Part shown: positions 19,972-48,379 of the stretch, in pieces
How the letters are laid out: the number at the start of each line of letters is the position of its first letter
Numbering within the stretch: the first letter of the stretch is position 1
From: Candidatus Omnitrophota bacterium
Lineage (GTDB): Bacteria; Omnitrophota; Gorgyraeia; Gorgyraeales; Gorgyraeaceae
Direction: 5' to 3'
DNA length: 64,000 bases
Assembly: GCA_042571405.1 (NCBI GenBank)
Contig: JBHPHU010000002.1
Span: 2,787 to 66,786 of the forward strand
Program-made: the position numbers and the translations under genes
The notes under the pieces: generated by a model
What the model was told of the DNA's origin: nothing
The model's input: only the letters and a program-made list of their open reading frames with translations
The model's database searches: none

Positions 19972-19976
19972 GTATT

Positions 19977-20118
19977 TTGCTTAAATGCGAATATCGAAAT
20001 CCGAATCTCGAAACAAATTCGAAATTGAAAATTCTAAATCTTAAATACTATGTTTAGAATTTTAGATTTAGAATTTATAATTTGTTTCGAATTTCGATAT
20101 TCGAATTTCGGATTTAAA
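19977..20118. repeat. ~140-bp 'CGAAAT' long palindromic element, copy a
   Basis: Left arm is ttaaatgcgaatatcgaaatccgaatctcgaaacaaattcgaaatt. Right arm is aatttgtttcgaatttcgatattcgaatttcggatttaa. The right half closely matches copies b and c. Confidence 0.85.
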
Positions 20119-20130
20119 CATATATTATTA

Positions 20131-22059: not shown

Positions 22060-22077
22060 ATTTATAGCATGTTTTTA

Positions 22078-22220
22078 TTGCTTAAATCCGAAATACGAAA
22101 TCCGAATTTCGAAACAAATTCGAAATTAAAAATTGGAAGGCCTTAAACAATGTGTTTTGAATTTTGGATTTAGAATTTATGATTTGTTTCGGATTTCGAT
22201 ATTCGATTTTCGGATTTATA
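22078..22220. repeat. ~140-bp 'CGAAAT' long palindromic element, copy b
   Basis: ttgcttaaatccgaaatacgaaatccgaatttcgaaacaaattcgaaatt ... gatttgtttcggatttcgatattcgattttcggatttataaa. Confidence 0.85.
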
Positions 22221-22252
22221 AATATATTGTTTAGAAGAAAGCTTTAATTTAT

Positions 22253-24090: not shown

Positions 24091-24095
24091 TATGT

Positions 24096-24223
24096 ATATA
24101 AATCCGAAACTCGAAATCCGAAATCCGAGACAAATTCGAAATTCGAAGTTCGAATGTTTTGAATTTTGGATTTAGAATTTATGATTTGTTTCGAATTTCG
24201 ATATTCGTATTTCGAATTTAAGT
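24096..24223. repeat. ~130-bp 'CGAAAT' long palindromic element, copy c
   Basis: tataaatccgaaactcgaaatccgaaatccgagacaaattcgaaatt ... gatttgtttcgaatttcgatattcgtatttcgaatttaag. Ends 8 nt before the rbfA RBS. Confidence 0.85.
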
Positions 24224-24241
24224 AATAAATAGGAGGAAGAT

Positions 24242-37399: not shown

Positions 37400-37430
37400 G
37401 CTGAAGGCTGAAGGCTGAAGGCTGAAGGCT
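37400..37430 (+). repeat. Tandem heptamer (GCTGAAG) x4.4 preceded by its partial inverse
   Basis: gcttctcagctg-tcag-cagCTGAAGGCTGAAGGCTGAAGGCTGAAGGCT ends 1 nt before the murG ATG (37432). Confidence 0.85.
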
Positions 37431-44630: not shown

Positions 44631-44674
44631 TTCTCGACTTCGCTCGAACAATATTCTTCGAGCGAAGTCGAGAA
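44631..44674. repeat. 'TTCTCGACTTCGCTCGAA' palindromic element, copy 2 (perfect 18-bp stem)
   Basis: TTCTCGACTTCGCTCGAA-caatatt-(c)TTCGAGCGAAGTCGAGAA lies 23 nt after the proC stop. Confidence 0.85.
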
Positions 44675-44698: not shown

Positions 44699-45550
44699 AT
44701 GAAAATAGGTATTATAGGAGGCAGCGGGTTATATAATATAGATGGACTAGAGGATGTAAAGGAGGTCAAGGTAAGCACGCCTTTTGGAGAACCGTCCGAT
44801 AGTTATATCGTTGGTAGCCTAGAAGGGTCAGAGGTTGTATTTTTGCCAAGGCATGGCAGAGGTCACAGGATATTACCCACAGAACTTAACTATAAGGCAA
44901 ATATATACGGCATGAAAAAACTTGGTGTTGAACAGATTATATCAATTTCAGCAGTCGGTAGTTTCAAGAAAGAGCTAAAACCTCTGGACATAGTGCTTCC
45001 AGACCAATTCGTTGACAGGACCAATCAGGCGCGCAAGACAACATTCTTTGGTTCTGGTATAGTTGGTCACATAAGTTTCGCAGAGCCTGTTTGCGCGGAT
45101 TTAAAGAAAACTATCTTCAATGCAGGCAAGGACCTGGGTTTGAACCTGCATAATAAAGGTACATACCTTAATATGGAGGGCCCAGCATTCTCCACAAAGG
45201 CAGAGTCACACCTTTATAAAGGCTGGGGCATGGACATAATAGGCATGACAAATATGCCTGAAGCAAGGCTTAGCCGCGAGGCAGAGATATGTTACGCAAC
45301 AGTCGCTTTTATCACTGATTATGACTGCTGGCATGAGGAGATAGTTACCATTGATATGGTGATAGAAAATCTCACCAGGAATGTCGGGACAGCGAAGAAA
45401 CTAATAAAGAAGGTCGTGCCAATGCTCGCAAAAACAAAAAGAGAATGTGCTTGCAAAGACGCATTGAAATACGCTATTATAACTGATAAAAAACTTATCC
45501 CAGACCGCGCAAAAAAGGATCTGGATGTGATAATAGGGAAATACATATAA
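44699..45550 (+). CDS. mtnP: S-methyl-5'-thioadenosine phosphorylase
   Basis: MKIGIIGGSGLY, FLPRHGRGH, and GMT.MPEA motifs of the MTAP/PNP family. Confidence 0.9.
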   Translation: MKIGIIGGSGLYNIDGLEDVKEVKVSTPFGEPSDSYIVGSLEGSEVVFLPRHGRGHRILPTELNYKANIYGMKKLGVEQIISISAVGSFKKELKPLDIVLPDQFVDRTNQARKTTFFGSGIVGHISFAEPVCADLKKTIFNAGKDLGLNLHNKGTYLNMEGPAFSTKAESHLYKGWGMDIIGMTNMPEARLSREAEICYATVAFITDYDCWHEEIVTIDMVIENLTRNVGTAKKLIKKVVPMLAKTKRECACKDALKYAIITDKKLIPDRAKKDLDVIIGKYI

Positions 45551-45574
45551 TTTATTGCATGAGATCTAAATAAT

Positions 45575-45596
45575 GCTTGTGCACTTGTGGCTTGTG
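45575..45596 (-). repeat. Three imperfect GCTTGTG units (reverse complement of the ileS intragenic CACAAGC heptamer)
   Basis: GCTTGTG-CACTTGTG-GCTTGTG lies 30 nt upstream of the ileS ATG. Confidence 0.7.
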
Positions 45597-45625
45597 CGCT
45601 AAGTTGCGACAGCAGGGAGTAACTT

Positions 45626-48373
45626 ATGGATTACAAGAAGACATTAAATTTACCGAAGACTGATTTTCCAATGAGGGGAAGTCTGCCTCAGAAAGAGCCT
45701 GCCATTCTTGCGGAATGGGAGAAGCAGGACATATACACGAAGATTATCGAAAAGCGAAAGTCTTCTCCAAAGTATATACTGCACGATGGCCCGCCATACG
45801 CGAATGGCAATATCCATATAGGCCACGCCTTGAACAAGACTCTAAAAGATATCGTTATAAAATTCAAAACAATGCGCGGCTTCCAGGCTCCATATGTTCC
45901 TGGCTGGGATTGTCACGGCATGCCTATCGAGCACCAATTATTTAAGGAATTAAAGAAGACAAAGCACGACGTAGACCAGGTAGAATTCAGAAAAATGGCG
46001 CATAAATTCGCTATGAAGTTCGTTAATCTGCAGAAGGAAGAATTTAAGCGCCTTGGTATATTTGGAGACTGGGATAATCCGTACCTTACCTTAAAGCCTG
46101 AATATGAAAAGGAAATAGTAGCCAGCTTCAATAAGCTCGCAAAAGACGGCTATGTTTATCGAGGTCTTAAGCCAATCAACTGGTGCGCCAGATGCGAGAC
46201 TGCTCTTGCAGAGGCAGAGGTGGAATATGAAAACCATGTCTCACCGTCGATATTTGTTAGGTTTGCTATAAAGCCACAAGCCACAAGCCACAAGCCACAA
46301 GCCTTTCTTGTGTGGACCACCACTCCATGGACTTTGCTTTCCAATGTTGCGGTTGCTGTGCACCCTGATCTTGAATACATTGAATTCAAAAGCGACAAAG
46401 ATGAAATTCTGATTTTCGCAAAAGACCTGCTCGATGCCGTTAAAGAAAAAACAGGTTTAAAGGGAAGCATAGTAAAAACCTTTAAAGGCAAAACGCTCGA
46501 AGGCCTTGTTGCAAGGCACCCGTTTTTAAATCGCGATTCAAAAGTCGTGCTGGCAGAGTATGTCTCAAATGAGGATGGTACAGGTTGCGTACACATAGCG
46601 CCTGGACATGGCCAGGAAGATTATAATGTGGGCCTGAAATACAATCTCCCTGTTATCATGCCCGTTGATGATAAAGGAAGGTTTGTAAAGCTGAAGGATT
46701 ACGAAATACCCGATTCTATCGCAGGCAAAAATGTCTTTGGATCGAATGAAACAGTTCTTGGAATCCTCAGTGATAAAAAATCTCTTTTATATTCTGAAAA
46801 GACTACGCATTCATATCCGCATTGCTGGCGATGCAAACAACCTCTGTTGTTTCGCGCGACAAAACAGTGGTTTGTCGGAGTAGATAAAAACAATCTTCGC
46901 TCAAAGACTCTCAACGAGATTAAAAAGGTCAAATGGGTGCCTGCTTTTGGCGAAAAACGAATCTCTAGTATGGTGGAACTCAGGCCTGACTGGTGCCTGT
47001 CAAGACAGCGTTACTGGGGCGTGCCAGTACCTATCTTATATTGCTCCTCATGTGATTCCGAGATCATAGATGAAAAAGTTATGAAGAATATCGAAGAGCT
47101 TTTTGGAAAACAAGGCTCTGATATCTGGTTTTTGAAAGACGAAAAGGACCTTCTACCCAAAGGTTTTAAATGTCCGAAATGCAAGGGCGATAAATTTAAA
47201 AAAGAAACAGATATACTGGATGTATGGTTCGAGTCAGGCGCAAGCCATCAAGGTGTCTTAAAAATCCGAAAAAACTTAGGTTTTCCAGCTCAACTTTATC
47301 TTGAGGGCAGTGACCAGCATAGGGGTTGGTTTCAGACTTCTCTATTGGTTGGTATGGGTGTGGCAGGAAGAGCGCCATTTGAAAACGTGCTTACACATGG
47401 TTTTGTCGTTGACGGAGAAGGTAAGAAGATGTCCAAATCATCCGGGAATGTCATTGCGCCGCAAGAAATTATTTCAAAGAGAGGCGCGGATGTATTAAGG
47501 CTGTGGGTAAGTTCTTCATCTTATTTTGACGATGTGAAGATATCCGAGGAGATCCTGCAGCGTACAGTAGAGGCTTACAGAAAATTTAGAAACACGGCAA
47601 AATTTATACTAGGCAACATCTCAGATTTTAACTATGAAAAGGATGCCATTGACAGGAAGGACATGCTTGAGATAGATAGGTGGGCGTTGTCGCGGCTAAA
47701 TTCTGTCTTGAAAGACGTGACAGATGCCTTTGAGAGATTTTCATATCATGAGGTTGTCAGCTCACTATATAGATTTTGTATTATGGACATGTCGAGTTTT
47801 TATCTTGATATCTTAAAGGATAGACTGTATACTTTTGGCCGTGCATCAAAAGCGCGGCGTTCAGCTCAGACAGCGCTCTACCGGATTCTTGATGCGCTGG
47901 TAAGGGAACTTGCTCCGCTTATCCCGTTTACCGCAGAAGAGATTTGGCGGCACTTTAAGGCGGCGGGTTCGGTGCATCTTTTGGATTGGCCAGAGGTAGA
48001 TGAAAAGGCAGTGGACATTGACTTAGAGAAAGATTGGCAAAAATTGAAACAACTCAGAGAAAGCGTCTTAAAGGAGCTCGAAGAAAAACGTATAGCCAAG
48101 ATCATAGGCAGTCCGCTGGATGCAAAAATAATACTTTACATAAAGAATGATTTAGAGTATAATTTGCTCTCTAAATACCTGAATGAGTTACCGTCGCTTT
48201 TTATAGTGTCGCAGGTAGAGTTGAAAAAGGCCGAAGACAGGAAGATCGAGGTCGGCAAAGCAGATGGCAAAAAATGCAGTCGCTGTTGGAACTGGAATGA
48301 TTTTGTAGGTAACGACAGCGTTCATCCAACGCTTTGCAAGAGATGCAAGGATGTTGTAGCGGAAGGGAGCTAA
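45626..48373 (+). CDS. ileS: Isoleucine--tRNA ligase (type 1, C-terminal Zn-finger)
   Basis: HIGH (NIHIGHAL), KMSKS (KKMSKSSGN), a CP1 editing domain, and C-terminal CSRCWN...CKRC. Confidence 0.97.
46272..46303 (+). repeat. In-frame tandem heptanucleotide repeat (AGCCACA x4.5) inside ileS
   Basis: aAGCCACAAGCCACAAGCCACAAGCCACAAGCC is read in rotating frames as [11 protein letters not shown], just before the conserved WTTTPWTL block. Confidence 0.9.
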
Positions 48374-48379
48374 CACATT

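Follow-up and report, generated by a model that had tools for sequence, protein, structure and literature searches.

The subject of the present analysis is ileS, the gene for isoleucyl-tRNA synthetase (IleRS, also IleS), in a 64-kb stretch of DNA (called the window, by which the whole of the analysed stretch is meant) whose source is a Candidatus Omnitrophota bacterium near Ca. Gorgyraea. A perfect tandem array of a 7-nt unit lies in frame within this gene, and an inverted, imperfect copy of the same unit lies in the leader that precedes it. The features of the locus on which the argument turns are the following.

45551-45625, forward strand: spacer of 75 nt between the gene for a PNP_UDP_1 phosphorylase and ileS, containing the inverted copy together with an AGGGAG Shine-Dalgarno sequence that is part of a short local hairpin.
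45575-45596, forward strand: imperfect inverted copy of about three units, GCTTGTG-CA-CTTGTG-GCTTGTG, in the ileS 5' leader (the leader motif).
45626-48373, forward strand: ileS, encoding an isoleucyl-tRNA synthetase of 915 aa (identified from the open reading frame and its motifs, homologs, an exact look-up and PDB matches).
46271-46303, forward strand: perfect AAGCCAC x4.7 array of 33 nt, in frame in ileS (from Tandem Repeats Finder (TRF), the translation, chance controls and the codon alignment).
46296-46312, forward strand: local hairpin CACAAG-CCTTT-CTTGTG, in which 46296-46301 pairs with 46307-46312 in the minimum free energy (MFE) structure.

The translation of ileS carries the NIHIGH, KMSKS and WTTTPWT signatures, its homologs carry the Pfam domains tRNA-synt_1 and Anticodon_1, and it matches the S. 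aureus IleRS (1FFY) at an E value of 6e-34 across the 150 residues tested; the signatures and the similarity to solved structures together place it among the class Ia IleRS enzymes of bacterial type. The product is identical to NCBI MFC1620792.1 (Candidatus Omnitrophota bacterium), which is annotated as isoleucine--tRNA ligase. It falls in the 90%-identity cluster with P0002, and the neighbouring 90% cluster, P0001, includes a Candidatus Gorgyraea atricola protein (here and below, P numbers designate proteins, and L numbers designate related loci). IleRS is essential, and no second copy of ileS occurs within the 64-kb window.

When applied to the window, TRF reports AAGCCAC x4.7 with 100% matches and a score of 66. 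An earlier reading made from the letters alone (the sequence-only reading) had described AGCCACA x4.5 at 46272-46303, which is the same array in another rotation. Counted from the ATG at 45626, codon 216 begins at 46271, and the array supplies the codons AAG CCA CAA GCC ACA AGC CAC AAG CCA CAA GCC, that is, the 11 residues 216-226. Its final partial unit, AAGCC, abuts the conserved Phe codon TTT, so that the array stands directly 5' of the block FLVWTTTPW. The translation bears out the proposal in that reading that the array is in frame and is read through all three frames in turn, and its claim that a change of one or two units would frameshift the gene agrees with the computed outcomes: the addition or removal of one or two units leads to a stop within 17-51 codons, while the addition or removal of three units keeps the frame.

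An array of this kind is not expected by chance. A 14-mer of the array, with up to two mismatches allowed, has 4 occurrences compared to 0.41 expected, a count that is attained in none of 100 shuffles. At period 7 the window contains three perfect arrays of 2.5 copies or more, compared to 0.15 expected, and at periods 5, 6 and 8-12 it contains none. With at least three head-to-tail 7-nt copies beyond chance, the array has the form of a prokaryotic heptanucleotide simple sequence repeat (SSR).

The contents of the orthologous site in relatives are given below. The units were read from fetched DNA, except for CAGCCCT (P0004) and GAGCCTC (P0127), which were deduced from peptides. The loci of close relatives were reached via exact-protein look-ups; scans of genome and metagenome contigs with the N-terminal half of IleS gave mostly distant IleS and, among the matches listed, three loci of at least 73% identity, the others having at most 60%.

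L161 and L162 (90% amino acid and 87% nucleotide identity to the window): AAGGGAC x4.7, perfect, with the same start codon and the same 33 nt.
L163 (Ca. Gorgyraea atricola, a close relative): AAGGGAC-AAGGG, 1.7 units, exactly 21 nt shorter.
L001 (a close relative): 12 nt, no repeat (GACGATCGGATT).
L002 (75% amino acid identity): AAGAAACx2-AAGCAACx2-AAGCC.
L164 (more distant): CAGCCTT x5, with one mismatch.
L165 (more distant): CAGCCAT x4.4.
L166 and L167 (more distant): CAGCCTT arrays broken by 37-nt and 26-nt inserts.
L168 (more distant): about seven TTCACGN units.
L026 (more distant): CGTTCAG x4.4.

The number of units differs between orthologous sites by whole units, and the step observed is one of three. 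The loop of L163 reads GTG-AAGGGAC-AAGGG-TTT, while that of L161, whose gene is 91% identical to it at the nucleotide level, has three more units, so that the 4.7 units of L161 and L162 and the 1.7 units of L163 are separated by 21 nt; the four independent contigs of AAGGGAC type all have 4.7 units. Every ortholog examined (120 orthologs, the cluster members and these four contigs, all of them assemblies and not reads) is in frame. The comparison thus accords with the expectation of the sequence-only reading that only three-unit changes would be tolerated.

The identity of the unit changes at the same site even as the arrays stay perfect. When placed in one register, the units of the closer clade (CAGCCTT, CAGCCAT, AAGCCAC, AAGCAAC, AAGAAAC and AAGGGAC) are neighbours 1-2 substitutions apart, and the peptide-derived CAGCCCT and GAGCCTC also lie 1-2 substitutions from other units of that clade. 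Between the window and L161, CC has become GG in all five copies, and the arrays are internally perfect while the genes differ at 20-28% of third-codon positions. The array of L002 contains three successive unit variants, and its 3'-terminal unit, AAGCC, matches that of the window. Unlike units are found even in proteins that are at least 90% identical (KKQETSNKQQA in P0012 versus KPRASSLEPRG in P0127). On a neighbour-joining (NJ) tree, loops of array type occur throughout the clade, and 4-residue loops of unrelated sequence are scattered at the tips. The combination of perfect arrays with wholesale replacement of the unit is the pattern of concerted evolution of a tandem array.

The local hairpin at the 3' end of the array is a separate observation. 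The CACAAG of the last unit is the reverse complement of the Leu-Val codons CTTGTG that begin 5 nt downstream, which yields the 6-bp hairpin at 46296-46312, and in L161 and L002 the reverse complement of the unit likewise starts with CTTGT, as do the Leu-Val codons. The match may be due to chance, or it may be a hint of template switching with the flank.

The loop in which the array resides is the most variable part of the protein. In a regional alignment of 120 orthologs, the stretch that separates SPSIYVKF from WTTTPW is hypervariable, and among 50 orthologs the array-bearing segment takes 19 distinct lengths, more than any other IleS segment, in keeping with the statement in the sequence-only reading that the loop before WTTTPWT is length-variable. 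In the AlphaFold model (mean pLDDT, the predicted local distance difference test, 86.5), residues 216-224 form a coil between strands 199-215 and 225-231, with lower confidence than in the adjoining blocks, and the array is accordingly modelled as encoding the tip of a beta-hairpin that leads into the WTTTPWT motif of the editing domain. The assumption that the array is an insertion which could be sized against orthologs did not survive the comparison with known structures. The solved IleRS enzymes of S. aureus and T. thermophilus have approximately 12 unrelated residues at this position, which rules out a net insertion relative to IleRS generally; because of these residues, the 11-residue loop is to be regarded as being of normal length and the 4-residue loop as a deletion.

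What is conserved in this permissive loop is the repetitiveness of the nucleotide sequence and not a peptide. Peptides of at least 9 aa that can be encoded exactly by a pure heptamer repeat occur in 10 of the 120 orthologs, in every case at residues 216-230, and none occurs elsewhere in these proteins of approximately 900 residues. The peptides encoded in the loop across the Omnitrophota share no sequence, and the loop peptide probably has neither a conserved sequence nor a specific function. A practical consequence for annotation is that low-complexity peptides in orthologs, such as QPSAFSLQPSAF, should be treated as translated repeats and not as conserved motifs; the beta-hairpin before the editing domain, being a highly permissive site, could also serve as a strain-level marker for Omnitrophota populations.

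The loop also tolerates palindromic inserts (L003, L166 and L167; P0183, P0185 and P0164). That of the IleS loop of L003 (929-2224) has the form ATGTCCAGCTTCGCAAGTTGCCC-GTCT-GGGCAACTTGCGAAGTTGGACAT, and a recurrent insert that translates as SPNGTAVPFGER is of the type found in P0183, P0185 and P0164. The inserts listed comprise, in addition to L003, those at L166:4640-4723 and L167:4640-4711 and those in proteins P0050, P0164, P0183, P0185, P0071 and P0078. In L166 and L167 the palindromic inserts are nested within the heptamer array. Small dispersed repeats nested in heptamer repeats have been reported from cyanobacteria.

The second site of the unit in the window is the leader motif, whose middle unit has one extra base or a mismatch, and which ends 29 nt 5' of the ATG and 676 nt 5' of the array. 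Outside the array, no sequence on either strand of the window aligns locally to (AAGCCAC)n as well as the leader motif does: it has a Smith-Waterman score of 33 as against 19 for the next best match and a maximum of 25 over 60 simulated windows, and it has 13-nt exact matches to the reverse complement of the array. These scores favour the suggestion in the sequence-only reading that leader motif and array are one heptamer unit in opposite orientations. The leader motif is not, on the other hand, retained alongside the array in close relatives, since L161 keeps the array behind an unrelated 54-nt leader that has no complement to it. L001 and L163 have 2 nt at the orthologous spacer, L161 and L162 have an unrelated 54-nt hairpin there, and no other copy of the 75-nt spacer is present in the window or in the fetched loci. 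AAGCCAC is a lineage-specific variant of the unit, and the spacer with its inverted copy is a recent acquisition.

The sequence-only reading had also proposed a long-range pairing between the 5' untranslated region (UTR) and the coding sequence, of which the predicted duplex stands and the conservation does not. The duplex of 45575-45600 with 46272-46295 has 23 bp and a predicted energy of -37.5 kcal/mol; it forms part of the MFE fold computed for a 790-nt RNA, where its summed pair probability is 19.9 of 22, and in the comparison with control windows it scores -40.5, while the controls average -16.1 and go no lower than -26.6, so that a thermodynamically stable pairing of leader and array is predicted in the sequence of the window. 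Leader-array complementarity above control duplex energies was found in none of the nine array-bearing relatives, and the pairing fails as a conserved mechanism because L161 keeps the array but has a leader without a complement; the predicted helix is accordingly specific to the lineage of the window. Three more specific roles were considered and rejected. A conserved leader-array element is rejected because the leaders of the ten array-bearing relatives whose DNA was fetched contain no complement. Occlusion of the ribosome-binding site (RBS) by the long-range helix is not supported, the predicted accessibility of the RBS and AUG being unaffected by whether the helix is allowed or not (0.51 versus 0.45). 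A T-box or other known leader RNA family is likewise not supported, with no Rfam match at the gathering threshold in the window and only a chance-level hit (E value 0.85) in 45400-46400. Two copies of one heptamer unit in opposite orientations fit these data better than a conserved pairing does, and the strong RNA pairing of leader and array is most likely a by-product.

Heptamer arrays are not restricted to ileS, either in the window or in its relatives. A second perfect array of the same class in the window is the following.

37400-37430, forward strand: perfect GCTGAAG x4.4 array of 31 nt, ending 1 nt before the murG ATG (from TRF and BLAST).

The reverse complement of its unit, CAGCCTT, is the loop unit of L164, L166 and L167, to which it is matched by BLAST on the minus strand. 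In the orthologous ftsW-murG spacer of L163 a GC-rich palindrome is found in place of the array. Together with the leader motif of ileS, which is inverted and 29 nt from its start codon, this array shows that heptamer repeats occur near start codons in either orientation. It is also observed that the array, whose flanking genes are FtsW and MurG, supplies a GAAGG motif resembling a Shine-Dalgarno sequence.

The related loci, 1.04 Mb in all, contain 15 perfect arrays with 3 or more copies at period 7 and at most 1 at each of periods 5, 6 and 8-12, so that period 7 is over-represented relative to other unit lengths in the related loci as well as in the window. The clear period-7 arrays (TRF, at least 90% matches) in the loci and the window, 1.1 Mb in all, are 27-37 nt long and have 4-5.3 units, whether they are coding or non-coding, and none in that 1.1 Mb exceeds 37 nt. 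Some of those in the related loci sit in the open reading frames of other genes. The perfect CCAGCCG x4.1 array at L014:1149-1177 lies in a 232-codon frame with a YggS-like LSMGMSSDF motif and is read as HQPPAASRQPL; because this array lies in an open frame, coding heptamer arrays are not confined to ileS. At L114:5854-6021, four GCACTTC x4.5 arrays (31-32 nt) alternate with spacers of approximately 13 nt to form a 45-nt higher-order repeat, which lies within an open frame and translates as repeated CTSHFALRTSHPPHP. The contig end of L158 starts with a period-7 array of 27-37 nt.

Heptanucleotide repeats are, according to Mrazek et al. (2007, via PMC4692102 and PMC4679880), the most abundant class of long SSR in most bacterial genomes, possibly as a result of polymerase slippage, and species-specific heptamer families are known that occur near start codons, sometimes as inverted pairs and sometimes inside open reading frames (PMC4692102, PMC4679880). 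As the long-SSR class of Mrazek, Guo and Shah (2007) is summarized in those papers, the array resembles its members in having few head-to-tail 7-nt units, an excess of period 7, and a copy number and sequence that vary between close relatives at one locus; most copies in that class are intergenic, as is the murG-leader array here. It differs from that summary in lying in an essential coding region, where it is translated in three frames and changes in three-unit steps only, and in having been retained at a single codon position through much of a phylum even as its unit was replaced. The dispersed families available for comparison are TAACTGA of marine Beggiatoaceae and cyanobacteria (PMC4679880), GGGAATC / GGGGA(T/C)T of Xanthomonas and Nostoc (PMC4692102), and the tandem heptanucleotides of Calothrix PCC7601; the short tandemly repeated repetitive (STRR) sequences of cyanobacteria are of this type too. 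Common to such families and the present arrays are copy numbers of 2-6, a frequent position immediately 5' of start codons, inverted pairs in some cases, copies in some open reading frames in a stop-free orientation, and presence or absence at orthologous sites. In each of those families, however, a single invariant unit recurs at tens to hundreds of sites in a genome, whereas the unit here is lineage-dependent and two or three arrays are found in 64 kb; the units here are also not G-rich and have no quadruplex potential.

The phase-variable genes of Haemophilus and Neisseria resemble ileS in that a non-triplet unit lies in an open reading frame and slippage by one unit causes a frameshift, but ileS is an essential housekeeping gene with a short array, and no out-of-frame allele is seen in the assemblies. 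The coding repeats of Borg elements have unit lengths divisible by three, unlike the 7-nt unit of ileS, for which the peptide period is 7 aa per three units. What is common to ileS and the Borg elements, in whose proteins tandem repeats create disordered segments (PMC9879509), is the presence in open reading frames of fast-evolving, perfect nucleotide repeats which add low-complexity peptide to tolerant regions. The array therefore belongs to a known class of bacterial repeat, and what is unusual about it is its location in an essential gene, its quantization in steps of three units, and its long persistence with turnover of the unit.

The interpretation that probably accounts best for these observations is that the array is a heptanucleotide microsatellite in a permissive loop of IleRS, that a sister copy lies inverted in a recently gained leader, and that the array has no dedicated function. 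The array would arise and turn over by slipped-strand misalignment of the 7-nt unit, and only events of three units (21 nt, 7 aa) would survive selection, because ileS is essential and the loss or gain of one or two units introduces a stop. The resulting array states would be approximately 1.7 and 4.7 units in the clade of the window and approximately 7 units in a more distant clade. Recurring in-frame gain and loss would homogenize the units, so that each lineage would come to have an array that is perfect with its own unit. The 1.7-unit state, because it contains too little repeat to slip by 21 nt, could not easily re-expand and should decay to an ordinary 4-residue loop, which fits the scattered and unrelated 4-residue loops on the NJ tree. 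The leader motif would be an inverted and slightly decayed copy of the AAGCCAC unit in a recently acquired spacer. Slipped-strand misalignment filtered by selection is the most economical mechanism for the array; slippage as the motor, homogenization by gain and loss, and the lack of a function are what we infer from the pattern as a whole. If this interpretation is correct, the locus presents a microsatellite under a selection that allows only every third slippage product to persist, with an array that has survived for a long time, perfect and in a constant length class, while its unit has been replaced, and with a short state that is an apparent dead end.

Several points weigh against this interpretation. 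The slippage on which it depends is deduced from assemblies. The change of CC to GG in five copies needs several rounds of mutation and homogenization in genes that are only 13% diverged, and the proteins at least 90% identical to one another that carry wholly unlike units (P0012 versus P0127) present the same difficulty; recombinational replacement of alleles or active copying could explain such swaps of unit better than local slippage. One class of unit is shared by unrelated loci, CAGCCTT being found in the IleS loops of relatives and upstream of murG here, and AAGCCAC occurs in both loop and leader, which purely local slippage does not explain. The confinement of clear arrays to 27-37 nt (4-5 units), coding or not, is not obviously predicted by a slippage equilibrium. 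Finally, the site is repetitive across IleS lineages that are only 55-60% identical, which could reflect selection for a repeat at the nucleotide level.

The same points are the starting point for the view that the arrays are members of a dispersed, clade-wide heptamer family with the core NAGCCNN and do not arise only in place. Some mechanism, for example ectopic gene conversion, template switching or mobile-element-like activity, would copy or convert them from locus to locus, the ileS loop being one of few coding sites that tolerate arrays, and leader and loop being products of one copying event. This view is unlikely. In its favour, leader and loop carry one derived unit in opposite orientations, which greatly exceeds what chance would give; the IleS-loop arrays of L164, L166 and L167 are matched exactly by the reverse complement of the murG-leader array; the orthologous spacers of close relatives are empty or filled with unrelated small elements (2, 2, 54 or 75 nt between PNP and ileS, an array here and a palindrome in L163 between ftsW and murG); proteins at least 90% identical carry unrelated units; array size is alike in coding and non-coding DNA; and species-specific families such as TAACTGA (Beggiatoaceae), GGGAATC (Xanthomonas) and the Calothrix heptamers are precedents. 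Against it, 64 kb holds only two AAGCCAC loci (loop and leader) and one AAGGCTG; no further copies of the local unit, beyond scores at chance level, are found within 5-20 kb of the arrays in L161, L163, L002 and L026; the units at the ileS site form a stepwise mutational series and the three variants of L002 fit evolution in place; and no candidate enzyme or element was found. A bolder form of the idea, rather less probable, is that in the Omnitrophota arrays of approximately 30 nt and NAGCCNN type may be actively written, copied or converted at many sites, for example by a process that is template-switching, mobile-element-like or reverse-transcription-like, with the ileS loop and leader produced in one event. 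If that were true, repeated overwriting within essential genes would explain how proteins at least 90% identical come to carry different perfect arrays of the same length and register.

The explanations in which the array or its length would have a different meaning altogether are less probable again. A regulatory role in this lineage, in which leader motif and array close a loop of approximately 680 nt that tunes ileS translation or mRNA stability, is quite doubtful. The 23-bp, -37.5 kcal/mol helix, with its place in the MFE fold, its pair probability of 19.9 of 22 and its large excess over controls (-40.5 versus a mean of -16.1 and a minimum of -26.6), is what speaks for it, as does the expected position of the motif in the 5' UTR, both for a transcript that begins at the promoter-like site at 45451-45480 and for one that continues from upstream; set against this are the lack of conservation or covariation in nine array-bearing relatives, the closest included, the 2-nt spacers which leave the close relatives L001 and L163 without a leader, the unchanged RBS and AUG accessibility (0.51 versus 0.45), the lack of a match to an Rfam family, the unwinding of the coding-sequence arm that translating ribosomes would cause, and the fact that complementarity follows automatically from an inverted repeat copy. 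That the array is a contingency switch, in which slippage by one unit reversibly frameshifts ileS and creates a subpopulation without IleRS, in growth arrest or with a starvation signal, is very improbable even though phase-variable genes classically have just such a non-triplet SSR within the coding region and a change of 1-2 units truncates the product within 17-51 codons. All alleles are in frame (four AAGGGAC contigs, 120 orthologs and the cluster members, as assemblies), so that the sampled assemblies contain no out-of-frame allele; the gene is essential and hence not dispensable as phase-variable genes are, with no second ileS in the window; and 4.7 units are few for a high rate of slippage. 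The sole split ileS, P0180 and P0181, was considered as a frameshifted allele of the array and rejected, because it breaks near residue 726, away from the array. Least credible of all is an assembly artefact, in which the array or its length would result from the collapse of repeats in a de Bruijn graph. Tandem repeats are a known source of assembly errors, and the array lengths cluster near 33 nt, a common k-mer size, but equivalent arrays are recovered across pipelines (MEGAHIT k141 contigs; NCBI, ENA and JGI records), 33 nt is below the final k of the usual assemblers so that unique k-mers span such arrays, and two ENA samples have the same array with a different flanking synonymous site. 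The agreement of independent assemblies and assemblers and the intact frame in all cases rule it out for practical purposes.

Other small repeats in the window and the related loci also involve heptamers. Three copies of an intergenic element of approximately 140 nt are found at 19975-20125, 22076-22226 and 24092-24228, with 88% column identity. The element folds as one long imperfect hairpin (-45.8 kcal/mol, z -6.4), has no Rfam match, and has arms of heptamer units that resemble AAATCCG in the left arm and CGGATTT in the right arm; in appearance it is a repetitive extragenic palindromic (REP) element or a miniature inverted-repeat transposable element (MITE) made of heptamers. The ileS leader of a 76%-identical relative contains, at L167:3908-4000, a hairpin with arms of AGCTNTA heptamer arrays and an A/T-rich loop, which has the same heptamer-arm architecture as these elements and is unrelated to the CAGCCTT array in the L167 loop.

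The order of the genes around ileS is FtsW, MurG, ..., ProC, PNP_UDP_1 phosphorylase, ileS and DksA, downstream of the dcw cluster, and this synteny is common to relatives. Between proC and the PNP_UDP_1 gene, at 44631-44674, there is an 18-bp perfect palindrome (TTCTCGACTTCGCTCGAA ... TTCGAGCGAAGTCGAGAA), which is scored as terminator-like by a simple scan and is one more of the small palindromic elements of spacers. At the ileS-dksA spacer (48374-48379) there are 6 nt here, while L163 has 188 nt and two hairpins. Genomes that are approximately 87-91% identical (L001, L161 and L163) have gained or lost spacers between syntenic genes. These compact genomes are peppered with heptamer arrays and small palindromes that come and go at orthologous spacers.

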